Origin: Gammaproteobacteria bacterium | GTDB taxonomy: Bacteria; Pseudomonadota; Gammaproteobacteria; HyVt-429 | Direction: 5' to 3' | Assembly: GCA_013152415.1 (NCBI GenBank) | Contig: JAADGI010000019.1 | Location: 130,000 to 193,999, forward strand | Length of the DNA: 64,000 nucleotides | In this document: positions 11,923-54,096 of the stretch, in pieces | Position numbering within the stretch: the first letter of the stretch is position 1 | How the letters are laid out: the number at the start of each line of letters is the position of its first letter | The notes under the pieces: model-generated | What the model was told of the DNA's origin: nothing | The model's input: only the letters and a program-made list of their open reading frames with translations | Database searches by the model: none | Made by a program: the position numbers and the translations under genes

Positions 11923-12566
11923 GCGGGGTGTCTGTTTTAATGAAAAACACGAAAACAAGACGGAGAGCGGTTGCAAAATACCCAACCCAGAGGAAAGATT
12001 CAGATCACGTGGGAACGGTAGGCTATTTTTCATGGTCATACCCCGATATTGGCTCGGCGGTCCCTGCGACCAAGTGCATGGTGCATCAAAATCAGGAAGT
12101 TCGCATTATCAAGGTGCCGCGTATGTGTGCCTGCCTGGTCTACCGGACCCTTGCTGCGGCAAACATTGCACCCTCAGATAATAGCGAAAAACCCACTAAT
12201 AATATGGTATTACTGCCCTGACTTAAACCAAAGTATAACCCAAACTGGCGCTGTTCCCCAGTCTTCCTGGGCCATGGTTTAGAGGGGGCTTGAATCTGTG
12301 CCCGGGCCATCAATGTAGACACAAAACCTGCACCGCTGCTTCCTTATCGACTGAAAATGGGAAATCTTTAAGCCAGGACTCACTCCCTGGGCCCAAGCCC
12401 AACCATATCAAAACCCATGACACACTGGGTCCTTTATGGATAAACTCTCCCCCCCATTGGCCCGAATGGGCACAGAGGTGTGAGACTATGTTTTGCGCGT
12501 ACCCTCAAATCCGGGAAAGGGCATTTCGCCAGATCAAATCAGCTTAGCTTGTGACGATAAATCAGT

Positions 12567-31422: not shown

Positions 31423-32514
31423 TCAGGCGCTTGCCTCTTCTGGTATGTCGGCAGCGGCCTCCACCTCTTTTAGCACAACAGCGGGCTTAGCTGACTTGGT
31501 GGGCTTAAGGGATTTAAGGCCCAGGGCCTCGCGCACCCGCGATTCGATTTCGCCAGAAATCTCCGGGTGTTCTTTCAAAAATTGGCGGGCATTGTCTCGG
31601 CCCTGGCCAATACGATCTTTCTTGTAGCTATACCAGGCACCGGATTTATCGACGATCTTGTGGTCTACACCCAGATCAATGATCTCACCCTCGTGGGAAA
31701 TGCCTTCATCATAAAGAATATCAAATTCACATTTCTTAAATGGTGGTGCAACCTTATTTTTCACCACCTTGACCCGGGTCTGGTTACCGACCACCTCATC
31801 ACCCTTTTTGATCGCCCCGATACGCCGAATATCAAGACGTACCGAAGAGTAAAACTTGAGGGCATTACCACCGGTAGTGGTCTCGGGATTACCAAACATC
31901 ACCCCGATTTTCATGCGAATCTGGTTAATAAAGATCACCATGGTATTGGAGCGCTTGATGTTGGCGGTGAGCTTGCGCAAGGCCTGGGACATCAACCGGG
32001 CCTGAAGGCCCATATGGGAATCGCCCATCTCGCCCTCGATTTCTGCCTTGGGGGTCAGGGCCGCCACCGAGTCCACCACAATCACATCCACGGCTGCGGA
32101 ACGCACCAGCATATCGGCAATCTCCAGGGCCTGCTCACCGGTGTCCGGTTGCGAGACCAACAACTCGTCCACATCCACACCCAACTTGGCCGCATAGGAC
32201 GGGTCCAGGGCGTGCTCGGCATCAATAAACGCCGCCGCCCCACCCAGCTTTTGGGCCTGGGCAATCACCGACAAGGTGAGGGTGGTCTTACCCGAAGACT
32301 CGGGACCGTATATTTCAACCACCCGACCCCGTGGCAGCCCGCCTATGCCGAGGGCGATATCCAGGCTCAAGGAGCCGGTGGGTATCGTGCCAATGTCCTG
32401 CATGAGACTACCATCCCCCATGCGCATCACCGCCCCCTTGCCAAACTGTTTTTCGATCTGGCTCAGGGCCGCAGTCAGTGCCTTTTGTTTATTCGCGTCC
32501 ATTTTTTTCTCCAA
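31423..32514 (-). CDS. recA: recombinase RecA
   Basis: [23 protein letters not shown], the Walker [10 protein letters not shown] and the L2 loop region are present. Length 363 aa. Confidence 0.95.
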
Positions 32515-32549
32515 GTTAATGAATTATTACACATCTACCAAAACCTGAC

Positions 32550-33131
32550 CTAGCTCACTTGTTCCAGGCCCAATTCCGCACCGCCAACCAATGCCGACCA
32601 ACGGTGCAGCACTTCATAGTGGCTACCCTGGGCACCTATATGAGAGCGGACCAGACAAAGCTGATTCACACTCCAATCAATGCCCTTAAAGTCCAACTGG
32701 GGCAAACAACGTGCCTTACGCACCAGGCTCACGTGGGCCTGAAAGGGCCGGGCCTCCACCCTGAACCCGTAATCACCCAAACCATCACGTAATTGGGTGA
32801 CCCATGCCAACAACGCCGGGGGGGTGGAACCACACCCCGCCCAAACAATCCTGGGGCGGGACCACCACCCGAGCCGGTCCAGGCGCAGTTCGAAGGGTCG
32901 GATATCAATGGAACCGGCCACCTGAATCACCTGATCCAACTGATCTGTGGTTACTGCACCTATAAAGACCAGGGTCATGTGGATATTTGCAGCCACCGTG
33001 GGACGACCCTTGCATTGTGTTACACAGTCCTCAGCCATTTGGGCCAAAAACTGCTGCTGTGTCCTATTCGGCCACAGGGCCAAAAAGACCCGTTGAGGCC
33101 GGGAGGCCACTGATCGAGTTGCCATATTCAA
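32550..33131 (-). CDS. thpR: RNA 2',3'-cyclic phosphodiesterase (2H family, ThpR/LigT)
   Basis: Two H-x-T/S-x motifs (HMTLVFIG, HVSLVRK) are present. Length about 190 aa. Confidence 0.8.
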   Translation of the reverse strand: MNMATRSVASRPQRVFLALWPNRTQQQFLAQMAEDCVTQCKGRPTVAANIHMTLVFIGAVTTDQLDQVIQVAGSIDIRPFELRLDRLGWWSRPRIVWAGCGSTPPALLAWVTQLRDGLGDYGFRVEARPFQAHVSLVRKARCLPQLDFKGIDWSVNQLCLVRSHIGAQGSHYEVLHRWSALVGGAELGLEQVS

Positions 33132-33685
33132 TCCACCTCCTGTCCCAGGCGTGCCAACACACCCAAAAGTGCGTACCGCACCGCCTGTTCCCGAACGGCC
33201 AGACGATCACCCTGGAAACACTGCCGGTCGGTATCCACGGCAGCATCCTTCATGGTGGTATCTTTCACCGCCCAGGCAAACCATACCGTACCGACGGGCT
33301 TGGTCTCGGTGCCCCCACCCGGCCCGGCGATACCGGATACCGCCACGGCCACATGGGCCTGACTATGCCCTAATGCCCCCAGGGCCATGGCGATCACCGT
33401 GGCCTCACTTACAGCACCCTGCTCAACCAAAGTTTGTACTGGTACTCCCAGCATGTCCTGCTTGGCAATATTACTGTAGGTGACAAATCCACAGTCAAAC
33501 CACCGTGAACTGCCTGCCACACTGGTCATGACTTGGGCAATGCCGCCACCGGTACAGGACTCCGCCGTGGTCAACAACCACTTCCGGGAGACCATCAATT
33601 CACCGATCTGCTGGGCCAATCCTGTCGATTCCAATCTCAATGTCCTCTTTGCTCTCGTAACGACTACGAGACTCTTGTGCCCCAT
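33128..33685 (-). CDS. pncC: nicotinamide-nucleotide amidohydrolase (CinA C-terminal domain)
   Basis: LLTTAESCTGGGIAQVMTSVAGSSRWFDCGFVTYSNIAKQDMLGV aligns with E. coli PncC (LATAESCTGGW...SSAWFERGFVTYSNEAK). The start is uncertain because the track ORF is N-terminally extended. Confidence 0.7.
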   Translation of the reverse strand: MGHKSLVVVTRAKRTLRLESTGLAQQIGELMVSRKWLLTTAESCTGGGIAQVMTSVAGSSRWFDCGFVTYSNIAKQDMLGVPVQTLVEQGAVSEATVIAMALGALGHSQAHVAVAVSGIAGPGGGTETKPVGTVWFAWAVKDTTMKDAAVDTDRQCFQGDRLAVREQAVRYALLGVLARLGQEVD

Positions 33686-33776
33686 CACCCCTGGGCTCGT
33701 GGCCCCAGTCCAAGACCCCTGCCAAGACCCCTGACAGGGCTCTTGCATCTGTCTGCGGAACATTCTATCCTAAGTG

Positions 33777-33791
33777 AGAACAAAAAGAGAA
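33777..33791 (+). promoter_or_regulatory. GAAC-N7-GAAC direct repeat abutting the lexA start (candidate SOS box, alphaproteobacterial type)
   Basis: GAACAAAAAGAGAAC was read directly, ending about 8 nt before the lexA ATG. No CTGT-N8-ACAG box was found near lexA or recA. Confidence 0.25.
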
Positions 33792-33798
33792 CACTTTT

Positions 33799-34425
33799 AT
33801 GCCAACAGATCGTGAACGTCAGACACTTGAGTTTGTCCGTGCCTATACTGCGGAACACGGCTTCCCCCCCAAACTGAGGGAAATTGCCTCCCATTTGGGG
33901 ATTCAGTCCCGGGGCACCGTACACCGCTACCTGAGCGCCTTGAGGCAGGCCGGATTGATTGAGATCGAGCCCGAACGGGCTCGAGGTATTCAGGTCACCG
34001 GCCCCACAGAGTTAAAGGGTTCTGAGGAGACCGATATTGCCGGTCCAGGCACTCTGCCCCTGCTCGGACGTATTGCCGCCGGTATCCCCATTGAGGCTAT
34101 CCCCGGCCAGGATTGCATCAATCTCAGTGAGTTTTTTGTCCGCCCCAACCGTTTTGTGCTCCGGGTCCAGGGCGATTCCATGATGGATGACGGTATTCTG
34201 GACGGCGATATGGTCATTGTAGAAAAACGCGACAGTGCCGATGACAATGAAATTGTAGTAGCCCTCATCGACCTGGAAGAGGCCACCTTAAAACGCTTAC
34301 AGCGTAACCCGGACGGCAGCGTCACCCTGCACCCCGCTAATTGTGATATGCAACCGATGCGCTACAGCGGTGAGCGGGTACGTATCCAGGGCGTGGTGGT
34401 GGGACAATTCAGGTCTTATCGATAA
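33799..34425 (+). CDS. lexA: LexA repressor
   Basis: N-terminal winged HTH (KLREIASHLGIQSRGTVHRYLSALRQAGLIE). C-terminal S24 domain with GDSMMDDGILDGD and VVGQFR. Confidence 0.9.
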   Translation: MPTDRERQTLEFVRAYTAEHGFPPKLREIASHLGIQSRGTVHRYLSALRQAGLIEIEPERARGIQVTGPTELKGSEETDIAGPGTLPLLGRIAAGIPIEAIPGQDCINLSEFFVRPNRFVLRVQGDSMMDDGILDGDMVIVEKRDSADDNEIVVALIDLEEATLKRLQRNPDGSVTLHPANCDMQPMRYSGERVRIQGVVVGQFRSYR

Positions 34426-35391
34426 GTGGATGACCACAGTTGCTACTGGCCACGGGCGTTTGTTTATTTATATCACCGCCCTGCCAAACAACAGGTGTTC
34501 CAGGCATCGGATCAGAACACGCTCAGGCTAGTCCCTGGTTTAAATCCCATGACACGCCAGTTGTGCGATGAAGTCCTGAATATAAAAAAGCCGCTAATAC
34601 AACAAGATGCCAAAGGCATTTGGCTCGATATCACCCATTGGCAACCCCGTCACGGCACCCCATCATGTATTGCCCGGGTATTACGGAATGCCTGGCTGGA
34701 ACAAGCAACCGCCCCACCGGTCACCTTGGGAGTCGCATCCAACCGACACCTGGCGCGTTTCGCCTCCCTTTGTGCTGCCGTTGACGAGATCCACGTACTG
34801 CCACCCTGGCAGATCCACGACAGCCGGGATCAGATTGCCATAGCCGATGTGATTCCCCTGGACCCGTCTCAGAATCATCTACTCCACTCCCAGGGGATCG
34901 TTACCCTCAAAGATCTGGCCCACTGCCCCTTCGATAGCCTGCTACACCGGGCACCCTCCCTGGCCAAACAACTGTGGTCACTTTACCTGGGTCGAGACCA
35001 GGACATCACTATTGAGATGCTCAACCAATCACATAAAATGGCCCTGATACTCCCTCCCAATACTAATAGCCCGAAAACATTAACACGCTACCTAAAAAGA
35101 GCCTGTGCCAGTGTGATACGGCAATTAAATCAACGGCAGTTGATTGCAGGGCGTGGTGACATCACCCTGCACCTTGGTAGTGCCCAGGGTCCTGTAGCTG
35201 AGAATAAAAATTCCAGATATTCACTGGCAAGTGAAGAAGACAGCGGAATTGATCTGCCCACCATGGCCACCAAATTGCTCAAACAATGGGATGGCAGGGC
35301 GGTAAGCGAGATCGTCATCGAAGTGACTGCATTACAGCACTGCCACGGTCAACTGGACATGTTTCGGGATGAGCCCACCCTGGCGGCCTAG
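34426..35391 (+). CDS. truncated Y-family DNA polymerase-like protein (ImuB-like), GTG start coupled to the lexA stop
   Basis: VTLGVASNRHLARFAS...IHVLPPWQ...LHSQGIVTLKDLAHCPFDSLLHRAPSLAKQLWSLYLGRDQ aligns to the DinB/ImuB thumb region (IGVASNKLLAKLAS...LPV..LWGVG..T..KL..LGI.T..DL). The N-terminal palm and C-terminal little finger are shortened. Confidence 0.5.
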   Translation: MDDHSCYWPRAFVYLYHRPAKQQVFQASDQNTLRLVPGLNPMTRQLCDEVLNIKKPLIQQDAKGIWLDITHWQPRHGTPSCIARVLRNAWLEQATAPPVTLGVASNRHLARFASLCAAVDEIHVLPPWQIHDSRDQIAIADVIPLDPSQNHLLHSQGIVTLKDLAHCPFDSLLHRAPSLAKQLWSLYLGRDQDITIEMLNQSHKMALILPPNTNSPKTLTRYLKRACASVIRQLNQRQLIAGRGDITLHLGSAQGPVAENKNSRYSLASEEDSGIDLPTMATKLLKQWDGRAVSEIVIEVTALQHCHGQLDMFRDEPTLAA

Positions 35392-39662: not shown

Positions 39663-42600
39663 CTAAACGGCAAGCAACTTGACAACCATATTAAACAGCG
39701 TTTTGATTTCCATGGGCTTGGTCAGATAGCCCCGAATACCCAGCGCCTTGGATTTTACCTCATCCACTTGCTCACTGTAGCCAGTACACAGGATTACAGG
39801 CAGTTCAGGCCTCAGCGCCATCACTTTCTGCGCCAATTCCACACCCGTCAGCCCCGGCATAGTTTGGTCGGTAATGATGAGATCAAAAGCTGCCGGATCC
39901 TGACTGAACAAATCCAATGCCGCACGGCTCTCTGTCAGTACCGTGATCTTCCCTCCACGATTCTCCAACAAACTACCCATGAACCTGCCGATTGATTCTT
40001 CATCATCGACAATGAGTATGCGAGCACCCTTTAAATTTTTGGGTATAAGCTTAACATCTGACTGGGCACCTGGCTCATGGATTGACACACCCTCTGCTAT
40101 GGGCAATAACAATCGAAAAGTGGTTCCAAGCCCAAGCTCCGTATCCACAAGAATATGGCCCTCATGTTGATGAATAATACCATACACCATAGACAGCCCC
40201 ATACCGGTCCCTTTGTCCACATCTTTAGTTGTGAAAAACGGTTCAAAAATCCGTTCCAACTCGTCAACACTTATCCCGGTACCAGTATCCTGCACAGATA
40301 ATTCGACGTAATTCCCTGATGCAATTTCAATATGACAGGCATCACAAGTACAACGTAACACCGCATTACTTGGCACTGATTGTAAAATTTCTTGATTACT
40401 GTTTTTTCTAATACGAACACGACGTGCACGGATATCAAGACGCCCCTTACCCCCAACTGCATCCCGGGCATTAATGCATACATTCATCAGAACTTGTTGT
40501 AACTGTACTGGTTCCATCATCACCGCCGGAACATCCGTATCACAATGGCCGGATAATTCGATACTTGAAGGTAATGTGGAGTGCAACATTTTAACTACTT
40601 CTTTTATCATGGGGGATATCGGCACCCGGCTCACTGTGCTGCTACCGGTTCGACTAAAGGCCAGCATCTGGCTCACCAAATCACGCGCCCGTTCACCCGC
40701 CTGTGAAACCTCATTGAGGTACTCACGAAGTTCTGGCTGATTATTATTTGCAAAACGCTGTAAGGCCAGGCTGGTAAACCCCAGGATTGAGGCAAGAATA
40801 TTGTTAAAATCGTGAGCGATACCGCCGGTAAGCTGGCCAATCGCCTCCATCTTTTGCGCCTGCCGGAGTTGTATATTTAATTGGTGGCGCTCCTTGTGTG
40901 AACGTAAAGTCACAATGCCATAGGCCAGATCGTCAGCTAACTCCTGAAGAAGACGTACTTCTTCCTCATCATCGAATGCACTCTCTTCATGTGCGTAAAT
41001 ATTCAGCACCCCAAATGTCTGTTCTTTGTTTTTGAGAGGCAGCGCAACAGATGATCTATACCCATGTTTCAAGGCCGATTGTCGCCATGGTATATAACGG
41101 GGGTCTTCTAGAATATTACGAATAATACTAAGCTTGCCGCTTCGAATTGCGATCCCTGTAGGACCTTGCCCTCTTTCCGTATCGGCCCAAGTTAGATTTA
41201 CTGTCTCAAGATAGCCCTCATCATAGCCTGCCTGGGCCATGGGTTTAACAGTCTTCGCTTCATCATGCTCGGCAAACCCCACCCAAGCCAGTCGGTACCC
41301 CGAAATCTCCACGATAATACGGCACACCTTGTTTAATAATTCCGCTTCATCTTCGGCCCGCACCAGGACTTCATTGCATGCACTTAACGCCTTCAACGAT
41401 CTATTGAGCCTTCTCAAGGTTTGCTCAGTCTGATATTGCTCTGTTATATCCTGCACCGTACCGACGGAACGGACCGCATTACCCGTATCATCATAAAATG
41501 TCTCACAACGTGCCATAACATGTTTGATTTTACCGTCCGGCATACGGATACGATAGGCAATGTTATAGGGCAATTTATTCTTGAGTGATGCCGTATAAGC
41601 AGTTTCCACCTGCTCCCGATCATCCGGATGCATGAGATCCAGGTAGGTCCCAAAAGTTACGTCGATCTTCCAGGGATCGACCTCAAAGATACGGTAAATC
41701 TCCTCCGACCACTCCAGTTTATTGGTCACCAGATCCAGCTCCCAGTTGCCGATACGGGCCATGCGTTGTGCCTCGGCCAATCCCGCTTCACTATCGCGAA
41801 GTGCCTGTTCCACCCACAACCTTTCCAACTCCGCCGCCACTCGGACAGCGAAGATTTTGAGTATGGCCCCCACCATTCCGGCATTTTCCATGGGTTTGTC
41901 ATCCATCACCACAATCAGGCCGATGGGCTTACCGGTAGTATCCACTAAAGGTGCCCCAACATAGCTTTGTGCACCCATCTCTTTGAGCATGGGATCATCG
42001 GGAAACAGATACTGGATATCACGGGGATAAGCCTGAACACCGCAAGACGAAGACACCCCTACGACGTGCTCGCAGGGAGAACGCACTAATTCATAACTCG
42101 GACCATCAACAACCTCACCCTGAATACACAGGGCAACGGTGTCGACCGTGCCCGGTCTTTGTTTGTCCAGCAGACCGATGAAAGTGTATTTGGCATTGAA
42201 TGTCTTCGCCAAGTGTATAGCCAGCGATTGGAAAAAGGCCTCACCGATCTGGGACGAAACCCCAACAGCAATATTGTGCACGGTCTCCTCGGTATGCTTG
42301 CGCTCGGTTATATCCGTAATTGTTCCAACATAACCGACTATCACACCGTTTTCGTTCAGATCAGCCCTTGCCTGACCTAAAACCCACTTTGTAACACCTT
42401 CGGGTGTCCTGAAACGATATTCGCTCTGAAATGGCAAACTATTGTCGAAGGCCAATAGCCATTCTTCAAAAACGCGCTTGCGATCATCAGAGTGTATACC
42501 ATGGATCCAACCCTCACCCTGTGCATCTTCAAAAGTCATTCCTGAAATCATGCACCACCGTTCATTCACGTAGAGACAATTCCCAGCTGCGTCCGTACGG

Positions 42601-43568
42601 AATATCCCTACAGGTGAGACTTCTGCTAACACTTGATATCGCCTTTCGCTCTTCCGTAGCGCTTCATTGGCTTGTTTTGCAGTTTCTTTTGATCTGTCCA
42701 GTGCGCTGCCCATATGCCGGGATATTAATGTTGCAATAAATCCTGTGATAATAATAACTACTACCGTCAAGGCTGATGATATAAGCGCCGGATTTATTTT
42801 TGTCATTTGCATTAAAAAGAGAACCGCCACCCCACCAAATACAACCGATAACACCGAGAGAGGCAGGATAAAACGAAGTAAGTAACTGCGCGTAGAAGTC
42901 TCTGTCAAGAACCGCAGAGGGAAAGCATCCCCTTCAGCGGTCAGGATAGAAATGGACAGGAATGCAAAACCCAAAGCTGTCGTCAGTGCCATCGGAATGG
43001 TGGCGCCAAGCCCATAAAGCAGTGGCATCCCATAGAAATAAGCCAAACAGAAGGAAAAACTAATTAGCAGCACGAGAAAGCCCAACCCACTTACAAAATA
43101 TTCCACAAGCGTGTTGCCTTCCGGGAACTTTCGCTTAAAGATGAGAAAGAACACAGCAGTACCTGAAAGAAAAAAGGCGCCCCCCGTGGCAGGAGACATT
43201 CGTGCAATAGGAACCCCATTGAGCTTTCCTACAGCAGGGACAAGTATATCTTCAAAATTAAGGTCTATTCCGCTGAAATACCCAGCGACTTCCAGCACCC
43301 CGAACAGAGATACCAGAAAAGTGATTGCCATAAGGCTGGTTACTTTGGCCCCAGGGTACCGCCTGATATTTAAAACCAACAGAACAAAGCCAAGAATAAT
43401 AAAATTTACCGCTGTACTCGGCGCCATAGGGATATAGCTCTCCCTAACGCTACCGAGCAGACCCATGCCAGGCAGATATCCCACCAGCCCCAGAATTGCG
43501 AACATGATTGCGCCTGATGCGCCAACCGTGGACCATGGCTTCAGTACATTTTTCATGCAGCACTCCAA
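39663..43568 (-). CDS. hybrid sensor histidine kinase (multi-TM N-domain, PAS-GAF-PAS, HisKA-HATPase, C-terminal REC)
   Basis: 1301 aa. About 8 N-terminal TM helices. PAS/PAC repeats. HisKA IAHDFNNILASILGF. HATPase GTGMGLSMVYGII. Receiver ARILIVDDEESIG...DLIITDQTMPG. Confidence 0.85.
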   Translation of the reverse strand: MECCMKNVLKPWSTVGASGAIMFAILGLVGYLPGMGLLGSVRESYIPMAPSTAVNFIILGFVLLVLNIRRYPGAKVTSLMAITFLVSLFGVLEVAGYFSGIDLNFEDILVPAVGKLNGVPIARMSPATGGAFFLSGTAVFFLIFKRKFPEGNTLVEYFVSGLGFLVLLISFSFCLAYFYGMPLLYGLGATIPMALTTALGFAFLSISILTAEGDAFPLRFLTETSTRSYLLRFILPLSVLSVVFGGVAVLFLMQMTKINPALISSALTVVVIIITGFIATLISRHMGSALDRSKETAKQANEALRKSERRYQVLAEVSPVGIFRTDAAGNCLYVNERWCMISGMTFEDAQGEGWIHGIHSDDRKRVFEEWLLAFDNSLPFQSEYRFRTPEGVTKWVLGQARADLNENGVIVGYVGTITDITERKHTEETVHNIAVGVSSQIGEAFFQSLAIHLAKTFNAKYTFIGLLDKQRPGTVDTVALCIQGEVVDGPSYELVRSPCEHVVGVSSSCGVQAYPRDIQYLFPDDPMLKEMGAQSYVGAPLVDTTGKPIGLIVVMDDKPMENAGMVGAILKIFAVRVAAELERLWVEQALRDSEAGLAEAQRMARIGNWELDLVTNKLEWSEEIYRIFEVDPWKIDVTFGTYLDLMHPDDREQVETAYTASLKNKLPYNIAYRIRMPDGKIKHVMARCETFYDDTGNAVRSVGTVQDITEQYQTEQTLRRLNRSLKALSACNEVLVRAEDEAELLNKVCRIIVEISGYRLAWVGFAEHDEAKTVKPMAQAGYDEGYLETVNLTWADTERGQGPTGIAIRSGKLSIIRNILEDPRYIPWRQSALKHGYRSSVALPLKNKEQTFGVLNIYAHEESAFDDEEEVRLLQELADDLAYGIVTLRSHKERHQLNIQLRQAQKMEAIGQLTGGIAHDFNNILASILGFTSLALQRFANNNQPELREYLNEVSQAGERARDLVSQMLAFSRTGSSTVSRVPISPMIKEVVKMLHSTLPSSIELSGHCDTDVPAVMMEPVQLQQVLMNVCINARDAVGGKGRLDIRARRVRIRKNSNQEILQSVPSNAVLRCTCDACHIEIASGNYVELSVQDTGTGISVDELERIFEPFFTTKDVDKGTGMGLSMVYGIIHQHEGHILVDTELGLGTTFRLLLPIAEGVSIHEPGAQSDVKLIPKNLKGARILIVDDEESIGRFMGSLLENRGGKITVLTESRAALDLFSQDPAAFDLIITDQTMPGLTGVELAQKVMALRPELPVILCTGYSEQVDEVKSKALGIRGYLTKPMEIKTLFNMVVKLLAV

Positions 43569-43819
43569 TTCTGCACCGGTTTCTACGGTAGAAGCACCGG
43601 ATACCGGTCAGGTCCTTCCTGACTATAAGATGCGCGGTGAGGTTCCGAACTCCGTGGCTCTGGCTGTATAGATGTTCGGATCACTACGCCTCAATCACCG
43701 ATCCACTGCTTAACACTAAATAGCATATTTTTATGTACGCCGTTACCTGGTCCTGCTCATCTGGGCAATCATTCTACAACCGCAGACTCAGATCTTCCCC
43801 ACCCACATCGGCCTTGTGA

Positions 43820-46800
43820 TCAGACACTCTTGAGCAGATTTTCAACCAACCCCAGAAATTTATCGGTTTCTATCGGCTTGTCAACATAGCCTCTAATCCC
43901 CAGTGATTTGGCCTTGGCCTCATCAATATACTCGCTATAACCCGTACACAAGATCACCGGTAATTGTGGCCGAATCTCTAACAATGACTGCGCCAGTTCC
44001 ACGCCCATCATACCCGGCATGGTCTGATCTGTTACCACTAAATCAAATGCCTCTGGATTCTGCTTGAATCTTGATAACGCCAATCGGCTATCGGTTACTA
44101 CGGTAGTTTGACAACCATGACTTTTCAACAACTCGCCAATAAAGCCTCCAACCGAAACCTCATCATCCACAATTAAAATGCTCGCATCTAAAGTTGGATC
44201 TGATGATGTCTTCGTATCACTGTCCTGCCTATTCACGGTATCAACCTTTATATCTACTGCTGGGAATAATAGATTGAAGCTAGTGCCTTTCCCTGACCCA
44301 GTCTCCACGATAATATGACCGTCATGATCATGCATAATGCCATGCACCATAGACAAACCCATTCCTGTCCCCTTACCCACCTCCTTGGTGGTGTAAAATG
44401 GGTCAAAGAGTCGATCAAGTTGTTCCACATGAATACCGGACCCGGTATCACGAACAAAAAGCTTAATGTAATCGCCTCTAATCATTTTATGACAGGAATG
44501 ACATTGCTTTACGATATTACTCTCTCGCTGCAATCCGATAGTAAGACGGCCCTTTCCTTCCATGGCATCTCGTGCATTGATACATAAGTTCATGACCAGT
44601 TGATGTAGTTGCACCGGGTTCGTCATGATAGCCAAATTGCCACTCTCCATCTGTAAATCAATCTCGATACTCGATGGCAAAGTAGTACCCAGCATCTTCA
44701 ATGACCCCTTTATCAAGGCCGGCAACACATGCAGATCAAACTCCCCCTCACCCCCACGACTAAATGCCAACATTTGTGACACCAGATCACGTGCCCGCTT
44801 ACCCGCTCTATAGACTTCGCCAAGACAATCTTCAATTTGATTATTATCGTATTGCCCCAGCCCTTCACGCGCCAGTTCTGTGTAACCCATGATTGATGTC
44901 AGCATATTATTAAAGTCATGGGCAATGCCGCCCGTCAGTTGGCCGATGGACTCCATTTTCTGGGCCTGCTGTAACTGTCGTTGTAATTGCCTACGTTCAC
45001 TGATATCGCGCTTAATAGCAATAAAGTGGCCGATTCTTCCGTCCGTATCCAATACGGGTGTGATACTTTCTTCTTCCAGATACAGACTGCCGTCCTTGCG
45101 CTTGTTCCACAGATCTTCATGCCACGTCTTACCAGAGAGTATGGTATCCCATAGCCGTTTGTAGAATGCCTTATCATGTTTTCCGGACTTAACTATCCGT
45201 GGGTTTTTTCCCAGCACCTCACCCAACGTGTAACCGGTTAATCTGGTGTAGGCCGGATTAACCCATTGGATACTCCCGTGCCGATCGGTAATAACAATCC
45301 CGTCAGCCGTCGCCATAAGGGCTGAGGCCTGCAAGCGTGTTTTGGCTTGCGCAAATTCGAGTTCAATTACCTCGGAAAGAATGTTTGCCACCGCCAAAAG
45401 AAAATTACTATCATCTTGGGTAAAAACCCGGTGCTCACTTGTGTGGACACCGAGAATACCAAAGGGTCGGCTCCCCCCATGAATGATGATGCTCATACCA
45501 CTGACCACACCGTGGTCATGCAGCAACTGGGGTCCCGTAAAACGTGTCTCTTGATGCAGGTCTGCAACAATGACCGGATTTTTACAAGCAAGAGTGTAAC
45601 CCGCTTGCGAGTCTATTCCGGCATCCACGATGGCCCGACCCACAAGCCCCTCTTTCCATCCCACACCAGCACGCAATACCAGCGTCTTGGCATCATCAAG
45701 TAACTCCAGAATCTTGCAGTACTCCACCTCCAGGACCTGAGCAATGTACTCAACCGTTGTATCCATCAATGCGGCAAGCTCCATACCTGACAAGGCACGT
45801 TGTCCCAATTCCGCCACTGCCGCTTGTTGGTGTACACGCCTTATCAATGCCTCATCTACTTCCAGACGCCGCACTCTGGCTTGTGCCTGCCACCAGGTGC
45901 CTGCGACCATCAACCCTAACAACGGCATGGCGATCAACGACAGTTTCACAGCAAGGGTGTTCGCAGCAACATCGAGAGTCTTGCCTGGAACGTGGGCGAC
46001 AGCTTTCCAGTGGTATTCCTTATCCTTGGCCCCGTTAGGACCCAACTCGTCTGCAAGCTCCATTCTGGCAAGTGTTTTTCGTCCCTCCCGCAGGGGGTAG
46101 ACTGTAGTAAATGTAAATAAGCCATCACTGGTGTAGAAATGACCCTCATCCACTTTTTCAATTCGCTCCCAAACCCCTGGAAACTGTTTCTTGAATGTGT
46201 GTTTCGAACTCAACTGGGAGCCCCATTTCAATTGCGGACGTAGGCCAAACATCCAGAATCCACTTGCATCCAAAAGCATCACACGATCTGTGGTGTCAGC
46301 TGTCGCCTTCTTGAAGCCCTGTATTAAACTGGAGCCCAGGTAATTAAGGACAACAATGCCCTTTATTTTTTCCTGGCCATAAAGCACCGGGGTTGCCAGC
46401 CGAATAACGGGCTTATATGGCCTTTCCACTTTGCCGTACTCAACATTCAAATCCAAAGGAGAAATAAATAATTCTCCCTTTTTAAGGCCCATGGTGTCCG
46501 TAAAATAACGGCGCTTACTTTTATCTTGTAGTTGATCTTGTGGAACGATATAGGACTGTTTGAGGCCGAGATTTATCCTGATAACCTCCTTTCCGGTTTC
46601 ACCCAGGAAACGGAGCTGATCGTAGTGCCGTTTATTTTGCGAAAAAATCAGAAACTCTTGTGCCAGCTGCCCAAGTCCCTGAAAGGCCTGTTGTGTATTC
46701 ACTGTAATAAATTCACTGTGTTGCGAAAGAACCCTCAAATCGGCAATGGCGGCTTCCATATCCTTTTCCATAACCTGTTTTCCAAGGCTAATATGCAAGG

Positions 46801-46936
46801 TCTCTTCCGCCTCAAGAATGGCTCTCTGCTTCTTGACCCCAGAGGAGTAAAGATAACCAATAACCAGGCCAAAGATGACCACTATTGGTACAAACATGCG
46901 CAGGAATTGCTTAACAATACTTTTGGGTATTTGCAT
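43820..46936 (-). CDS. hybrid sensor histidine kinase (periplasmic Cache-like domain, PAS-GAF-PAS, HisKA-HATPase, C-terminal REC)
   Basis: The start is at the internal Met MQIPKSIVKQ. One TM helix, then a periplasmic sensor, then a second TM. HisKA IAHDFNNMLTSIMGY. Receiver ILIVDDEVSVG...DLVVTDQTMPG. The C-terminal half is paralogous to the preceding kinase. Confidence 0.85.
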   Translation of the reverse strand: MQIPKSIVKQFLRMFVPIVVIFGLVIGYLYSSGVKKQRAILEAEETLHISLGKQVMEKDMEAAIADLRVLSQHSEFITVNTQQAFQGLGQLAQEFLIFSQNKRHYDQLRFLGETGKEVIRINLGLKQSYIVPQDQLQDKSKRRYFTDTMGLKKGELFISPLDLNVEYGKVERPYKPVIRLATPVLYGQEKIKGIVVLNYLGSSLIQGFKKATADTTDRVMLLDASGFWMFGLRPQLKWGSQLSSKHTFKKQFPGVWERIEKVDEGHFYTSDGLFTFTTVYPLREGRKTLARMELADELGPNGAKDKEYHWKAVAHVPGKTLDVAANTLAVKLSLIAMPLLGLMVAGTWWQAQARVRRLEVDEALIRRVHQQAAVAELGQRALSGMELAALMDTTVEYIAQVLEVEYCKILELLDDAKTLVLRAGVGWKEGLVGRAIVDAGIDSQAGYTLACKNPVIVADLHQETRFTGPQLLHDHGVVSGMSIIIHGGSRPFGILGVHTSEHRVFTQDDSNFLLAVANILSEVIELEFAQAKTRLQASALMATADGIVITDRHGSIQWVNPAYTRLTGYTLGEVLGKNPRIVKSGKHDKAFYKRLWDTILSGKTWHEDLWNKRKDGSLYLEEESITPVLDTDGRIGHFIAIKRDISERRQLQRQLQQAQKMESIGQLTGGIAHDFNNMLTSIMGYTELAREGLGQYDNNQIEDCLGEVYRAGKRARDLVSQMLAFSRGGEGEFDLHVLPALIKGSLKMLGTTLPSSIEIDLQMESGNLAIMTNPVQLHQLVMNLCINARDAMEGKGRLTIGLQRESNIVKQCHSCHKMIRGDYIKLFVRDTGSGIHVEQLDRLFDPFYTTKEVGKGTGMGLSMVHGIMHDHDGHIIVETGSGKGTSFNLLFPAVDIKVDTVNRQDSDTKTSSDPTLDASILIVDDEVSVGGFIGELLKSHGCQTTVVTDSRLALSRFKQNPEAFDLVVTDQTMPGMMGVELAQSLLEIRPQLPVILCTGYSEYIDEAKAKSLGIRGYVDKPIETDKFLGLVENLLKSV

Positions 46937-47257
46937 GTAGAGACGGCCACCCTCGACTCGTGATTGTTTGCTCGTCACCAGGTCCACTGCCCCAAGTGCC
47001 CAGCCTTATATCTCAGTCTTTGCTTACAGGCCATCCTGATGGCTGACCATCAATTACAAACGGCAGCAGCAAATCTACGTGAATAAGCTCAAGCCCTTTA
47101 TGTTGAGCCTTCGCCACAAAGAAATAGAATTCACAGGGAAAATATGTCTTATCATCATCTGCTCTACAAACAAACAGGGAAGAGCCCTTCTGTCCATTCA
47201 CCAACACGACTTTTGAAATTCACCCTAGACACCAAATGATAAATTTCTTATTCAGCT

Positions 47258-48337
47258 TCACTGTGATCCCCTGCCCCAATTCAACACACCCGTTGCCGTA
47301 ATATCATCAAATATCTGCGCCCCCAGATCTTTCTTTGTCTGTGCCGGCAATAACAGATCCTGTGGGCGATTGCGTAAAAGCGCCAAAAAAATTGACACCA
47401 ACTCCGGATCACGCCACCCTTTTTGTTTCTCTTCCTCAAAAATCGTAATGACTTCGTCCTTTGATAAGGCCTTTTTGTAGGGTCGTTCACTCACAAGTGC
47501 GTCATAAATATCTACAATCTGAAACACACGAGCCAGTAGCTGAATCTCCTCACCCTTCAGTCCATCGGGGTATCCACCACCATCCCAACGTTCATGGTGC
47601 TGCCGGATGATAGGTAAAGTAAGTTTCATACTTTTCAAACCACCACAAAGGTGGCTACCAATAGTTGAATGCTGGCGCATGATATGCCATTCCTTATCAT
47701 CAAGTGGCCCCTTTTTAAGCAGGATACTATCCGGTATGCCCAGCTTACCGATGTCATGCAACACACCTCCTCGTCTTAGCGCAAGGAGCTCTTGTGAGCT
47801 GAGCCCGAGCTCCTTTCCAAAAACCACAACCATATGCTCAAGGCGCGAACAATGGTCACCGGTTATCTCATCTTTTGCTTCCACCATACGCGCCAAAGCA
47901 AACAGTATAGACTCCATATTGTCCAATTGATCCGTTATACGTTTATTATTTGCGGCCGCTCTCACCCTGGCAACCATCTCCATTGGGGCATAGGGTTTGC
48001 GGATAAAGTCATTCGCACCCGCCAACAGGCTACTTTCAAGATCTTCATTTGCTGTTGTTCCAGTAACGATAATCAGCGGCAATAATGGCATATCGAGATC
48101 ACGACGGACTCGATTACAAACCTCATCACCGCTTATGCCCGGCATGAGTTTGTCCAAAAGAACCGCATCAAACTCATGATCCTTGATACAAGATAAGGCC
48201 TCATCACCCGTTTGTGCCTCCATTACCTCAAATTCTGGTGACGGTAAAATTGCCCTTCCCAGCTTCCGATGTGATTCCTGATCATCAACTATAAGTATAC
48301 GAAAAGGGTGGCTCATGGTAGTCATGCTTGCACTCAT
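47258..48337 (-). CDS. response regulator with HD-GYP domain (putative c-di-GMP phosphodiesterase)
   Basis: REC (ILIVDDQESHRKLG...DAVLLDKLMPG) followed by HD-GYP motifs (GVLHDIGKLGIP, HHERWDGGGYPDGL). Confidence 0.85.
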   Translation of the reverse strand: MSASMTTMSHPFRILIVDDQESHRKLGRAILPSPEFEVMEAQTGDEALSCIKDHEFDAVLLDKLMPGISGDEVCNRVRRDLDMPLLPLIIVTGTTANEDLESSLLAGANDFIRKPYAPMEMVARVRAAANNKRITDQLDNMESILFALARMVEAKDEITGDHCSRLEHMVVVFGKELGLSSQELLALRRGGVLHDIGKLGIPDSILLKKGPLDDKEWHIMRQHSTIGSHLCGGLKSMKLTLPIIRQHHERWDGGGYPDGLKGEEIQLLARVFQIVDIYDALVSERPYKKALSKDEVITIFEEEKQKGWRDPELVSIFLALLRNRPQDLLLPAQTKKDLGAQIFDDITATGVLNWGRGSQ

Positions 48338-49851: not shown

Positions 49852-52047
49852 ATGTCATTTGATGAAAACACGCAAATATTTATTGCCGAAAGTAACGAAT
49901 TATTGAACGACATGGAAAATGCTTTGTTGGAATTGGAACGCTCACCGAATGATATAGACCTGATCAATCGTGTATTCAGAGCAGCACATACGATAAAAGG
50001 ATCTGCTGGCTTATTCGGCTTTAGCCATATTATTTCATTTACTCATGTTGTTGAGAACCTTCTAGATGATGTACGTAAGTGCACCGTACCAGTCAATAAT
50101 GACCTGATAAGCCTGTTTATGCGGGTAAAGGACCACATGGTTAGCATGATCCAAAACCTAGTGGATGAAACACCGACAGATGAGAATGAAGAAATAATTT
50201 TATTGCGGATGCTAAATGCCTCAAAGGCAGATAAAAATAACGAAAAACAGGAGACAATAACAAAAACGACTATCACACACGAAGAGCACCAAAGTGGGAA
50301 TCTGGTGGTAAGTGATCACTGGCATATTTCAATACGCTTGGGAACAGACACTTTCCGCCAGGGATTTAAGCCCCAACTTATATTCGAACAATTAACAGAG
50401 ATGGGAGAAATTATCTCAGCGAAACTAGTAACCGATTCAATCCCCCTACTCGAAAACTATGATCCTGAGAGTTGCTATCTAGGGTGGGAGATACTTCTTA
50501 AAACTGATGTTGATAAAAATACAATTTCCGGAATATTTGACTTTTTTCATGGTGCCAAAATATCAATTCTACCCCCCAAATCGCTCATATCAGACTATCA
50601 GGACATGCTGGAGAGTTTAGCAGGCGGTGATGAGGCATTGGGCAAGATACTGGTTGAAATTGGTGCGCTTACGGGAAGTGAGTTGCAGCAGGCATTGAAT
50701 CAGCAAAAAGAAAGCGGGGGATTAACGGGTGATATTCTAATTGAGCAAGGTGCTGTTCAACCGGAGGTGGTTAATAGCGCGGTTAAAAAACAACAACAAA
50801 CAAGGGCTGAAAAACAACGTGAATTAAATTTTGTACGTGTCGACTCAAAAAAACTTGACAAATTAGTCACACTCGTTGGTGAGCTTGTGATCAATGGAGC
50901 AAAGGTGTCGCAATTGGCATCTTATCACAAGAACGAAGATCTTAATGGGTCCTTGGAGGAAATGACACTGACACTGGAAGACATGCGGGAAACGGCTCTG
51001 GGGCTACGCATGGTACCTATAGCCAATAGCTTCAACCGTTTTCATCGTGTAATACGTGATACCTCAAAAGAACTAAACAAAAAAATCAGATTGGAAATCA
51101 TTGGTGGTGAAACTGAACTAGATAAAACAGTTATTGAGAGAATAGGTGATCCACTTATGCATCTTATCCGTAATTCAATGGATCATGGTATTGAATCGCC
51201 AATAGAGCGCACCAAAGCAGGTAAACCGGAAGAAGGTGTTATAGAACTCAAGGCATTTCATGAAACCGGTACCATCGTTATTAAGGTAAGCGATGATGGT
51301 GGCGGTCTGAATCCCCAAAAGCTTTTAAAGATCGCCAAAGAGCGCGGAGTGCTAAGGGATGATCAATCACTGTCCGAAAACGAAATTTACAAGCTAATAT
51401 TTGAGCCAGGTTTTTCTACCGCCGAATCGGTCAGTAATATATCCGGACGCGGTGTTGGTATGGATGTGGTAAGGCGTAATATCGAGTCATTACGGGGTTC
51501 TATCTCGGTAAATTCCACACTGGGAAAAGGTGTGACAATGACAATCCGCCTACCATTAACTCTCGCTATTATAGATGGTTTTCACATTTGTGTTTCTAAT
51601 GAATCGTTCATTATACCACTGGATATGTTGGATGAATGCGTAACTATGACGGAAACTCAAAAGCAAGAGGCCGATCTTCATAACTATATTAACTTGCGTG
51701 ATGAGGTACTGCCGTTAATACATATGAATAATTATTTCGGCTTGAGTCCAAAAGCAGAAACAGCAACACGAATGAACATAGTTGTGGTGAAATTTGCGGG
51801 CAGAAAACTAGGGTTGCTAGTAGATAAGCTTCATGGTGAAGCGCAGGCTGTAGTCAAACCATTAGGAAGAGTTTTTCAAGGTGTTAGAGGATTTGCCGGC
51901 TTCACCATACTGGGTAGTGGACAGTTGGCCTTGGTTCTGGACATCCAGGATCTAGCCAAATCCGCCATTGAACACGAGCAACTTGAACAATACCAACAAC
52001 TTCGATCTGCTAAAAATTCGGTCGATCAAACTTTATCTATTCACTAG
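49852..52047 (+). CDS. cheA: chemotaxis histidine kinase CheA with an inserted MshEN-like tandem motif
   Basis: The Hpt P1 domain (AAHTIKGSAGLFGF), dimerisation domain, HATPase (HLIRNSMDHGIE; GRGVGMDVV) and C-terminal CheW-like P5 are present. Residues 264-310 (GKILVEIGALTGSELQQALNQQKESGGLTGDILIEQGAV) resemble the two-part GspE-N/MshEN motif. Confidence 0.9.
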   Translation: MSFDENTQIFIAESNELLNDMENALLELERSPNDIDLINRVFRAAHTIKGSAGLFGFSHIISFTHVVENLLDDVRKCTVPVNNDLISLFMRVKDHMVSMIQNLVDETPTDENEEIILLRMLNASKADKNNEKQETITKTTITHEEHQSGNLVVSDHWHISIRLGTDTFRQGFKPQLIFEQLTEMGEIISAKLVTDSIPLLENYDPESCYLGWEILLKTDVDKNTISGIFDFFHGAKISILPPKSLISDYQDMLESLAGGDEALGKILVEIGALTGSELQQALNQQKESGGLTGDILIEQGAVQPEVVNSAVKKQQQTRAEKQRELNFVRVDSKKLDKLVTLVGELVINGAKVSQLASYHKNEDLNGSLEEMTLTLEDMRETALGLRMVPIANSFNRFHRVIRDTSKELNKKIRLEIIGGETELDKTVIERIGDPLMHLIRNSMDHGIESPIERTKAGKPEEGVIELKAFHETGTIVIKVSDDGGGLNPQKLLKIAKERGVLRDDQSLSENEIYKLIFEPGFSTAESVSNISGRGVGMDVVRRNIESLRGSISVNSTLGKGVTMTIRLPLTLAIIDGFHICVSNESFIIPLDMLDECVTMTETQKQEADLHNYINLRDEVLPLIHMNNYFGLSPKAETATRMNIVVVKFAGRKLGLLVDKLHGEAQAVVKPLGRVFQGVRGFAGFTILGSGQLALVLDIQDLAKSAIEHEQLEQYQQLRSAKNSVDQTLSIH

Positions 52048-52074
52048 TAAATGTATTCCAGTCAGGAGAATTTT

Positions 52075-54096
52075 ATGAAACTCATCGACAATCTAAAGAT
52101 GCGAAATAAGTTTGCATTAATGCTGGTGTTCCCCGTCTTAGGTCTGATTTATTTTGCCATCGCAGAGATATTTATTGAATACAACACCTTGCAGGAAATG
52201 GAGAGAGTTGAGCAACTTTCTACCTATGGGGTCGAAGCCAGTAATCTGGTGCATGAGATACAAAAAGAGCGTGGCATGACCGCAGGTTACCTGGCATCCA
52301 AAGCTAAGAAATTCTCCACTGAGTTGCCCAAGCAACGTAGTATGGTTGACAAACGCCTGGTCACATTAAAGGCCCACCTGAGAGACCATAATACCAAAGA
52401 TTTTGGTGGTGAAAAACTAACCCAGAGAGTCAATGCAATTCTCGGTCTCCTAAGTAATTTACAAGTTAAACGTGAAGAAATTACTGGCCTAAATATCAAG
52501 CAAAAAGATGCAATTGCTTACTTTACCAGCATTAACACTAAGTTACTTGATTCCGTTAGCCTGGTTGCAAGTTTAAGCACTACGGCAGAGATCAACAAGC
52601 TAGCCTCAGCCTATGTTAATTTTTTACAGGCCAAGGAGCGCGCAGGAATTGAACGTGCTGTAATTACAGGTGCATTCGGTGCCGACAAATTTAACGAGGG
52701 TGGTTATGAAAAATTCCTCTCACTTGTTGTGATGCAAGATACTTACATCAATGTATTCAGGTCATTTGCAAATGAAGCCCAGTTAGAGTTTATGGAAGAA
52801 ACCGTAAAAGGTTATGACATTAATGAAGTTGCTCGCTTACGCAGGATAGCCGGTGATGTAGATTCTAGAGAAAAGGGCTTCAATATTGATGCTGCCCACT
52901 GGTTTAAGGTCAGTACTGGGCGTATCAACTTATTAAAGAAAGTCGAAGACTATCTGGCTAATAATCTTTCAGAACGTACAGAAAAATTATTCTTATCAGC
53001 GAACAAAAATTTTGTTAGTGCAATATCCATATCCTCAATCGTTACACTGGTTACATTTCTATTCACATTTCTCGTTGTTCGTGGTGTCACCAGACCATTA
53101 AGTGACGCATTGCTACGGATGAGAGACATTGCAGAAGGGGAAGGCGATCTTACCAAGCGCATCGAAATTAAATCAACGGATGAGATTGGCCAATTATGTG
53201 GTGCAGCCAATACATTCATTGAAAAAATACATGGTGTAATCAGCAATGTCATAGTTAGCTCATCGGACTTGAGTGATGCTGCCAAACAAGTCAGTACTGC
53301 GTCACAGGATCTATCGAGCGGCTCTTCAGAACAAGCGGCCAGTGTTGAGGAAACCTCTTCCTCACTAGAACAAATAAGTGCAACGGTAAATCAGAATGCT
53401 GGCAACGCAAAACAAACTGAGGCCATGGCAACAACAGCTTCTAATCAAGCTGAAAAAGGTGGTGAACAGGTAGCGGAAACCGTTATTGCTATGAAGGATA
53501 TTGCAGAGAAAATTGCCATCATTGAAGATATTGCCTACCAAACCAATTTACTGGCACTCAATGCAGCTATCGAGGCTGCACGCGCAGGGGAGCATGGCAA
53601 GGGATTTGCAGTTGTAGCAACGGAAGTACGCAAGCTGGCAGGCCGCAGTGAATCAGCCGCTGGTGATATCAGCTCACTGGCAAAAAATAGCGTGAGCATT
53701 GCTGAGGGTGCAGGAAAATTACTGGAAGAAATCGTCCCCAGTATCAAGAAAACGGCAGACCTGGTTCAGGAGATCAGCGCATCGAGTGGAGAGCAAGCCA
53801 GTGGCATTGGTGAAATAAACAGTGCCATGGGGCAACTGGATACGGTCACTCAGAATAATGCGGCTTTGGCAGAGGAGCTATCAGCAACCGCAGAGGAAAT
53901 GAGCGCACAAACACAGGCATTGAGTGACATGATGAGCTTCTTCACAGTCGAAGATGGCACTGTTAAATCCAAGCCTATGCCCATTCGGGCCTCGGTAACG
54001 GAACTAAAACCCAAATTAGAAATTAAGAGAGTGATTGAGGGGCATGTTGCTACTGCGAGCAATATGGCTGTTCCCGAAGGATTTCAACGCTATTAG
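52075..54096 (+). CDS. methyl-accepting chemotaxis protein with periplasmic NIT-like sensor domain
   Basis: RBS AGGAGA lies 6 nt before the ATG at 52075. TM1, then about 270 aa periplasmic with an [11 protein letters not shown] motif (NIT-like), then TM2, HAMP, and an MCP signalling domain ([35 protein letters not shown]). Confidence 0.8.

Follow-up and report, generated by a model that had tools for sequence, protein, structure and literature searches.

A fingerless, predicted non-catalytic Y-family protein encoded directly after lexA in Acidiferrobacterales and related gammaproteobacteria

Two-gene lexA operons of the kind found in Escherichia coli (lexA-dinF) and Pseudomonas (lexA-sulA) combine the repressor gene with a single co-transcribed effector of the SOS response. 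In E. coli the SOS-induced Y-family proteins UmuD2C (UmuDC) and, when overproduced, DinB (Pol IV) slow replication non-catalytically, acting as brakes or checkpoints that compete for the beta clamp. Inactive Y-family polymerases (PolYs) that carry clamp motifs have been described before (PMC6511836, PMC12926913), and the iPolY and scDinB2-like groups of Timinskas and Venclovas, as described, keep the fingers and RecA-NT motifs and are tied to dnaE2 and/or imuB-C (PMC6511836). A recent survey of PolYs discarded truncated sequences (PMC12926913), and fingerless forms may therefore have been filtered out. Here we analyse an open reading frame (ORF) of this group found at positions 34426-35391 of a 64-kb stretch of DNA (the window; contig JAADGI010000019.1 of assembly GCA_013152415.1, Gammaproteobacteria bacterium). 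It encodes a 321-aa protein, and its GTG start is the base directly after the TAA of lexA. No description of a fingerless, tail-less, lexA-coupled PolY was found in the full-text literature; dead PolYs are already known, and what is new is this form of them.

Anatomy of the 321-residue protein

The original prediction, made from the letters of the window, held that the ORF opens at a GTG immediately following the lexA stop, and that it is derived from a Y-family polymerase without being one, in a lexA operon with stop/start coupling. Sequence comparison bore this description out, and relatives of the protein back the reality of the start.

Homology to the Y family was significant by several routes. 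NCBIfam Pol IV models matched the protein with E-values down to 3.5e-12 (aa 66-316 against model positions 109-364 of 410), although the best score, 45.5 bits against a cut-off of 381, places it below the curated Pol IV threshold. Chains of Dbh, Dpo4 and DinB in the PDB matched down to 3.5e-7. The Pfam matches were to IMS_C at aa 210-311 (E 0.0046; score 17.8 against a cut-off of 20.7) and to IMS at aa 65-114 (13.6 against 23.2). An AlphaFold2 (AF2) model built on a 24-sequence family alignment had a mean predicted local distance difference test score (pLDDT) of 81, while a 3-sequence alignment gave an unusable model with a pLDDT of 58. When the former was compared with the PDB by Foldseek, all top-listed matches were Y-family proteins (Dpo4, Dbh, DinB and Rev1; E ~1e-13, probability 1.0). 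TM-scores were only ~0.4 because a domain is absent and the little finger is mobile, and we based the fold call on the E-values and the hidden Markov model (HMM) results. The strings that had been quoted as a thumb and helix-hairpin-helix segment are all present (VASNRHLARFAS at aa 103-114, LPPWQ at 125-129, GIVTLKDL at 157-164 and LAKQLWSLYLG at 179-189). The HMM search upheld the proposed alignment as homology, but the strings span the C-terminal half of the palm together with the thumb, and not the thumb alone.

The gene and the parts of its product are listed below; long forms are the relatives of about 415 aa described in the next section.

34426..35391, + strand: fingerless, predicted dead DinB-type Y-family homologue of 321 aa (HMM, PDB, AF2/Foldseek, and the ratio of nonsynonymous to synonymous substitution rates, dN/dS)
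34441..34476, + strand: CYWPRA (aa 6-11) and palm strand beta1 (aa 12-17), with Tyr16 at the position of the first catalytic Asp (aligned with long-form CYWPRAIIHIDMNAFF; AF2)
34468..34545, + strand: scar of the fingers deletion, a linker of aa 15-40 replacing ~60 aa (BLASTP, AF2, motif spacing)
34612..34644, + strand: former Asp-Glu site, now Lys63-Gly64, followed by the WLDITHWQ strand and motif (window QDAKGIWLDITH aligned with long-form SVDEAFIDVTH)
34729..34767, + strand: palm motif GVASNRHLARFAS, with Arg111 where long forms have Lys (aligned with long-form GVAGTKSTAKIAS)
34840..35025, + strand: thumb, helix-hairpin-helix region, aa ~139-200 (AF2 helices at aa 139-199; Dbh thumb alignment; PF21999 in family relatives)
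35032..35340, + strand: little finger (PAD), aa 203-305, opening with LPPNT (PF11799 IMS_C; AF2; conserved L209, P210, P211 and T213)
35347..35364, + strand: candidate beta-clamp motif G308-QLDMF313 (near-invariant G308, Q309, L312 and F313)

The protein keeps the palm scaffold, the thumb and the little finger, and it is the fingers domain (~60 aa) that is gone, through an internal in-frame deletion. In the AF2 model the palm comprises beta1 (aa 12-17), a helix at 41-51, strands at 58-68, a helix at 79-91, a strand at 99-104, a helix at 107-116 and a strand at 122-125, with a disordered linker at aa 22-38 (pLDDT <50). A helical thumb follows at aa 127-199, and the little finger forms a beta-alpha-beta-beta-alpha-beta unit at aa 203-301 (strands 203-213, 243-250 and 293-301, helices 216-236 and 277-287), where the block-mean pLDDT was ~90 except in the loop in the 250s-270s. 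The view that the ORF is without the little finger and most of the palm did not hold, since the AF2 model shows both and the IMS_C match the little finger; missing instead are the fingers and the RecA-NT-like C-terminal tail of ~50 aa, the protein ending 8 residues past the clamp motif. BLASTP located the scar of the fingers deletion by pairing aa 15-25 of the window protein (LYHRPAKQQVF) with aa 76-86 of a long form (LIQRPARPKVY), just past the fingers.

We read the active site from alignments with 415-aa relatives bearing HIDMNAFFASVEQRD and FSVDEAF. All three catalytic carboxylates are missing: the first Asp is replaced by Tyr16 (or by the deletion junction) and the Asp-Glu pair by Lys63-Gly64, and there is no acidic residue between aa 4 and 28. 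Residue W66 aligns with Y108 of Dbh, in SIDEAYLDVT, consistent with Lys63-Gly64 occupying the Asp-Glu position. Arg111 corresponds to the conserved palm Lys of long-form GVAGTKSTAKIAS, which contacts the dNTP in structures of Dpo4 and DinB. Judged from its sequence, the protein is without every element for nucleotide selection and catalysis and is hence predicted to be catalytically dead. Close to the C-terminus, GQLDMF at aa 308-313 is a candidate beta-clamp-binding motif; PolY clamp motifs have the consensus QxxLF (PMC12926913).

Relatives, the reduction series and selection

Only two close homologues of the protein were found among 5.8 billion sequences. Each follows lexA directly, in an Acidiferrobacteraceae-type contig with the synteny of the window (csrA-ask-alaS-recX-recA-thpR-cinA, then divergent lexA-ORF), and in both the N-terminal 41 residues are conserved despite an ORF frame that differs from that in the window. 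That word-indexed homologue search gave these two relatives and, with a 24-sequence profile, added only P0024 and P0122; it was an exhaustive HMM profile search of 1.84 billion representatives, with 119 matches, that revealed the family. The best matches form a distinct family, mostly of 290-350 aa with a few members of 380-390 aa. At ~25% identity, positions invariant or near-invariant in 24 members were C6, W8, P9 and R10 of CYWPRA; D68, T70, H71 and Q73 (DxTHxQ); P127 and W128; L209, P210, P211 and T213; and G308, Q309, L312 and F313 of the C-terminal GQLxLF, which most short forms carry 1-10 residues before the end of the chain. The window protein carries the full set (CxWPRA, DxTHxQ, PW, LPPxT and GQLxLF). 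Three giant predicted proteins, P0009 (5253 aa), P0015 (3096 aa) and P0023 (1593 aa), each gave 15-51 separate matches to the profile, every one limited to a palm segment of ~47 aa (profile positions 65-112), and appear to be predicted tandem arrays of this Y-family palm fragment.

Further members were sought with hand-made degenerate motif patterns in scans of genomes and metagenomes, from which tblastn removed about one third of the genome matches and about three quarters of the metagenome matches as chance or unrelated. The genome scan gave ~20 members, all from Acidiferrobacterales, Sulfuricaulis, Sulfurifustaceae or unclassified (gamma)proteobacterial metagenome-assembled genomes, and the metagenome scan gave 15. 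Overall there are ~35 related loci, mostly from Acidiferrobacterales, and the family is placed directly after lexA: by tblastn, all 17 testable genome loci, another 4 distinct loci and 12 of the 15 metagenome loci have a lexA on the same strand immediately before the gene. As far as sampled, the family is confined to Acidiferrobacterales and related uncultured gammaproteobacteria. Public annotation names its genes 'hypothetical protein' or gives a generic COG-style name, and none has a precomputed Pfam domain; the JGI label for some members is 'nucleotidyltransferase/DNA polymerase involved in DNA repair'.

A comparison of the regions downstream of lexA in relatives showed a full-length related gene there, and not an unrelated one. 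At 13 loci (7 labelled Sulfuricaulis or Sulfurifustaceae) the family is represented by long forms of 403-436 aa, most of ~415 aa, that keep intact CYWPRAIIHIDMNAFFASVEQRD and FSVDEAFIDVTHCQ, the sites of the catalytic Asp and Asp-Glu, as well as the fingers domain. They extend 56 aa past GQLELF, in a tail that contains IDRINARYGEFTVAPA and is similar to the RecA-NT motif that most PolY tails are described as having (PMC6511836). The matches of one long form reached 6.7e-43 to Pfam IMS and 1.6e-73 to NCBIfam Pol IV. By these sequence features the long forms are apparently active polymerases.

Between the long and the short forms stand dead proteins that still have fingers: P0005 has HVHIH and VDQ in place of the catalytic residues, and P0012 and P0016 are similar. 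In the short forms the fingers, the Asp-Glu pair and the tail are all lost. The spacing from the Cys to DxTHxQ decreases from 109 aa in active forms through 65, 62 (window), 58, 55 and 47-39 to 23 aa. The deletion junctions vary by lineage, L064 keeping IDVTLHGFVAS, L027 HVDAAG and the window LYHRPAKQQVF. In a neighbour-joining tree of LexA, the dead L027 joins two active loci, L016 and L022, with a bootstrap of 78%, a placement that suggests at least two independent degenerations; it is the one case of independent loss with moderate support. The position of the window clade in the same tree had a bootstrap of only 35-38%, and the neighbour-joining tree of the PolYs suffers from long branches. 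A 420-aa Y-family ORF, L023 (JBATGJ010000249.1), has a RecA-NT-like tail (MPNVIAPAWKPFGHRQTI) and is without CxWPRA and DxTHxQ; its upstream context is cut off. This ORF is possibly the closest outgroup to the lexA-linked clade.

The 321-aa gene derives from a full-length DinB-type polymerase located after lexA in relatives such as Sulfuricaulis. This replaces the suggested origin in a mutagenesis cassette, as the gene does not come from imuA-imuB-dnaE2. The graded series within one bacterial order, from active polymerases through dead forms with fingers to fingerless ones, is a clean case of evolution from enzyme to non-enzyme.

For the window ORF, dN/dS was 0.13-0.16 against two relatives and 0.13-0.17 for codons 2-42 alone, with lexA at ~0.05. 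Values for short forms were 0.13-0.25 (10 computable of 11 pairs, from five or six lineages), and those for active long forms 0.11-0.17, with one pair at 0.27. Reading frames were intact at every locus examined. The conserved N-terminus and the low dN/dS indicate that the ORF truly begins at the lexA stop, that its N-terminus is real and that the gene is under purifying selection. The short forms are maintained genes and not pseudogenes, and the idea of a decayed gene is contradicted by these values, the first 41 codons included. Despite their losses, selection on the short forms matches that on their active relatives, and they are welded to lexA in all but one of the short-form lineages seen.

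Control region and junction with lexA

The lexA gene encodes 208 aa (TIGR00498, 3.9e-48). Its features and those of its control region are as follows.

33799..34425, + strand: lexA, with a helix-turn-helix DNA-binding domain (PF01726, 7.2e-15) and an S24 self-cleaving domain (PF00717, 6.9e-28)
33743..33771, + strand: candidate lexA promoter read from the sequence, with -35 TTGCAT (33743-33748), a 17-nt spacer and -10 TATCCT (33766-33771)
33776..33793, + strand: candidate LexA operator GAGAACAAAAAGAGAACA, a GAAC-N7-GAAC direct repeat conserved upstream of lexA in relatives
34423..34428, + strand: stop/start junction TAA/GTG, a putative translational coupling site (junction comparison with relatives)

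The putative operator is a GAGAACA-N4-GAGAACA direct repeat (GAAC-N7-GAAC). It is present once in the 64-kb window, where 0.06 matches are expected with up to 3 mismatches, and no second copy was found there, for example directly before recA. Upstream of lexA, GAGAACAAAAnGAGAACA occurred in 20 of 20 related loci checked at a variable distance from the ATG, with one variant, GAGAACAAATAGAGAACA, in L009; loci with the operator include L001, L005, L006, L009 and L011-L038. Most related loci share, ahead of lexA, a layout of TTGCnT, ~17 nt, TAnnCT and the operator in that order. A consensus promoter scan did not list the pair at 33743-33771. In L014, L015, L019 and L031, 50-70 nt separate the operator from the lexA ATG, and L019 has gacaggacgaacga twice. 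The GAAC-N7-GAAC form is that of the alphaproteobacterial LexA box, and not of the gammaproteobacterial CTGT-N8-ACAG (PMC4951493). A gammaproteobacterial order appears, then, to use a direct-repeat LexA operator of a type known from Alphaproteobacteria.

One lineage of metagenome contigs (L088, L093 and L102) bears directly on the operator. It encodes a 345-aa short form with no lexA upstream; a lexA-type promoter and the GAGAACAAAAnGAGAACA operator lie immediately upstream, and the ATG follows 3 nt past the operator, an arrangement resembling an operon copy from which lexA was cut out. That promoter and operator are kept in these lexA-less loci is good evidence for an operator function of the 18-mer, and suggests that the gene is under the same control though detached.

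Divergent from lexA, the window carries the gene run cinA(pncC)-thpR(ligT)-recA-recX (31423-33763, - strand). The longest cinA ORF, with its start at 33763, overlaps the candidate lexA promoter; the true cinA start probably lies further in, at ~33682, and the single operator may sit in a divergent control region shared by cinA and lexA (33683-33798).

In the window the ORF shares the reading frame of lexA, and a mechanical ORF rule would therefore begin the ORF wherever the next start-type codon falls past the lexA stop, which here is the codon directly following it. The evidence for GTG 34426 as the true start hence comes from relatives and not from the window alone. We also considered a LexA fusion made by stop-codon readthrough, which was ruled out by relatives that place the ORF in another frame. 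In all cases, short forms behind lexA start between -8 and +4 nt relative to the end of the stop codon. The junctions are TAA/GTG in the window, TAATG in L001 and TAGTG in L005, so that the start is kept at the lexA stop in three frame configurations, and at other loci the two genes overlap (ATGA or GTGA) or are 2-9 nt apart (2-4 nt in short forms). No conserved Shine-Dalgarno sequence was present in the last 20 nt of lexA among the compared loci. Such a pattern would be the signature of termination-reinitiation coupling. At several long-form loci (L011, L014, L031 and L036 among the junctions noted), 60-150 nt lie between lexA and the polymerase gene, and at L013 ~850 nt (1645-2497), with no convincing ORF inside.

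On the 3' side the ORF is followed by convergent rlmB and rnr. The expected absence of imuA and dnaE2 downstream was confirmed, and neither these genes nor imuB nor a second Y-family gene occurs in the 64-kb window. Base composition at the ORF is unremarkable and hence gives no hint of recent transfer. The large ORFs of the window include sensor kinases, a C25 peptidase, alaS and others. The peptidase is a 1425-aa ORF (7759-12039, - strand) with a C-terminal gingipain-type Peptidase_C25 domain (E 1.2e-72) and no Pfam match in its first ~1080 residues. A dense signalling block (39663-48337, - strand, and 49852-54096, + strand) encodes CheA, a response regulator of HD-GYP type and a chemoreceptor with a NIT (nitrate/nitrite-sensing) domain, besides two very large hybrid PAS/GAF histidine kinases of 1300 and 1054 aa.

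Possible functions and comparison with known systems

The only role known for catalytically dead Y-family proteins is that of an adaptor within a multi-subunit mutasome, as in the case of ImuB, and in the short forms the partner-binding modules are gone too. From the identity and anatomy of the protein, the selection on it, its linkage to lexA and the conservation of the operator, we infer clamp and DNA binding, SOS induction, translational coupling and a physiological role. We lean, with modest confidence, towards a functional gene whose product, a fingerless and catalytically dead descendant of a DinB-type polymerase, acts non-catalytically on the clamp during the SOS response. Transcription would proceed from the autoregulated lexA promoter with its GAAC-N7-GAAC operator, and translation by termination-reinitiation at the lexA stop, so that the protein would be made along with LexA upon SOS induction. 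It would then dock on the beta sliding clamp, and probably also on primer-template DNA, without DNA synthesis. As a non-catalytic occupant or regulator of the clamp in SOS, it could brake the replisome, control polymerase traffic or protect primer ends. The active ancestor may already have held such a non-catalytic role besides catalysis.

Several points weigh against this reading. The Pfam matches of the single protein lie below the gathering cut-offs, and no intrinsic terminator was found after the ORF (fold z-score -0.35). The putative LexA/SOS control of the gene, the candidate clamp motif GQLDMF, and the predicted binding of DNA through the kept thumb and little finger are all drawn from sequence conservation, and the proposed role as a brake or traffic controller is drawn by analogy. 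The CYWPRA and THxQ motifs are unexplained by it and could serve a different partner. Without the RecA-NT tail and ImuB-C the protein has no evident route to recruit another enzyme, and a partner gene may lie beyond the visible 64 kb.

A more far-reaching version of our preferred reading, which we regard as possible and put forward tentatively, is that the family is a natural separation-of-function translesion synthesis (TLS) polymerase, from which synthesis and RecA binding were stripped repeatedly and independently while selection kept docking on clamp and DNA. Its members would then be dedicated SOS replisome brakes or clamp gatekeepers, so far undescribed in the form of a stand-alone protein, and their level would track LexA re-synthesis through the stop/start coupling. 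If pure occupation of the clamp or primer end is what the protein does, the long-debated checkpoint or brake function of TLS polymerases would be isolated in one small protein, where it could be studied without polymerase activity.

The suggestion of a shortened ImuB-like adaptor, in which a dead Y-family protein would serve SOS mutagenesis by holding a TLS enzyme, DnaE2 or another, on the beta clamp, survives in part, and we consider it unlikely. The predicted loss of catalysis and the clamp motif fit it, and a dead PolY with a clamp motif under LexA control follows the logic of ImuB (PMC6511836); moreover, the contig is at least 209 kb long and the window covers 64 kb of it, so that dnaE2 or imuA could sit elsewhere. 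Against it, the protein has neither the RecA-NT-like motif nor ImuB-C, the modules for which binding to ImuA' and DnaE2 has been proposed or demonstrated (PMC6511836, PMC11791113), and ImuB retains the fingers domain that the 321-aa protein does not. In addition, imuA, imuB-C and dnaE2 were not seen beside the gene at loci with listed neighbours, nor in the window.

An action on the SOS switch itself, with the protein tuning LexA cleavage or RecA activity at LexA or the RecA filament and not at the replisome, seems to us improbable. The tight stop/start coupling in every short-form lineage behind a lexA would suit such a modulator, as would the conservation of the unexplained surface motifs CYWPRA and THxQ in active and dead forms, and the RecA-NT-like tail IDRINARYGEFTVAPA of the active relatives implies an ancestral interaction with RecA (PMC6511836). 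However, that tail is exactly the part that the short forms lost, and their most strongly conserved C-terminal feature is the clamp motif. The lineage that keeps gene and operator without an adjacent upstream lexA further indicates that co-translation with LexA is not essential.

We give very little credence to a decaying, functionless pseudogene of the lexA-linked polymerase, read through from lexA. The loss of a domain, catalytic residues and tail, the graded reduction across lineages (spacing from 109 to 23 aa) and the public annotation without Pfam domains would be in keeping with decay, but frames are intact everywhere examined and dN/dS in short-form lineages is as low as in active enzymes. 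Motifs are also invariant at ~25% identity, the start is kept at the lexA stop in three frame configurations, and the AF2 model is well folded. That the protein is still a polymerase or nucleotidyltransferase using non-canonical residues is hardly credible: the palm scaffold is kept, D61 and D68 lie near the former active site and the JGI name points that way, but the canonical carboxylates, the fingers with the pocket for the nascent base pair and dNTP, and the dNTP-contacting Lys are all missing, D61 is not conserved in the family, and D68 is shared with active forms as a structural residue of LDVT.

Among described systems, ImuB is the obvious comparison. The 321-aa protein is like it in having a Y-family fold without catalytic carboxylates, a clamp motif past the little finger, LexA/SOS control and a non-catalytic way of working, as far as these can be predicted from its sequence. 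Unlike ImuB, which has fingers, a RecA-NT-like motif and a long ImuB-C and is encoded with imuA and dnaE2 (PMC6511836), it lacks all of these and is encoded alone after lexA, and by HMM it is closest to DinB/Pol IV models and does not belong to the ImuB family. The Kyrpidia tusciae-type iPolY and the Streptomyces scDinB2-like proteins are, like the short forms, lineage-specific and dispersed dead derivatives of the PolY core that keep clamp motifs; by the descriptions of those groups, the short forms differ in having lost the fingers and the RecA-NT tail and in being linked only to lexA.

The order of genes, with lexA first and a PolY downstream, is that of the Geobacter lexA-imuB-C-polY operon (PMC6511836) and of the 415-aa long forms of Acidiferrobacterales, and the latter share with the window protein both the operator and the family motifs (CYWPRA, DxTHxQ, LPPxT and GQLxLF). 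The long forms and the Geobacter PolY have an intact D...DE, fingers and a RecA-NT-like tail, and Geobacter has imuB-C in between, whereas the window protein stands at the reduced, non-catalytic end. In E. coli, braking by DinB or UmuD2C is a side activity of active polymerases; in the window protein, by analogy, with catalysis predicted to be lost, only the non-catalytic role could remain. Unlike the operons of the lexA-dinF and lexA-sulA type, the gene downstream of lexA here is a Y-family derivative, with its start codon fused to the lexA stop.

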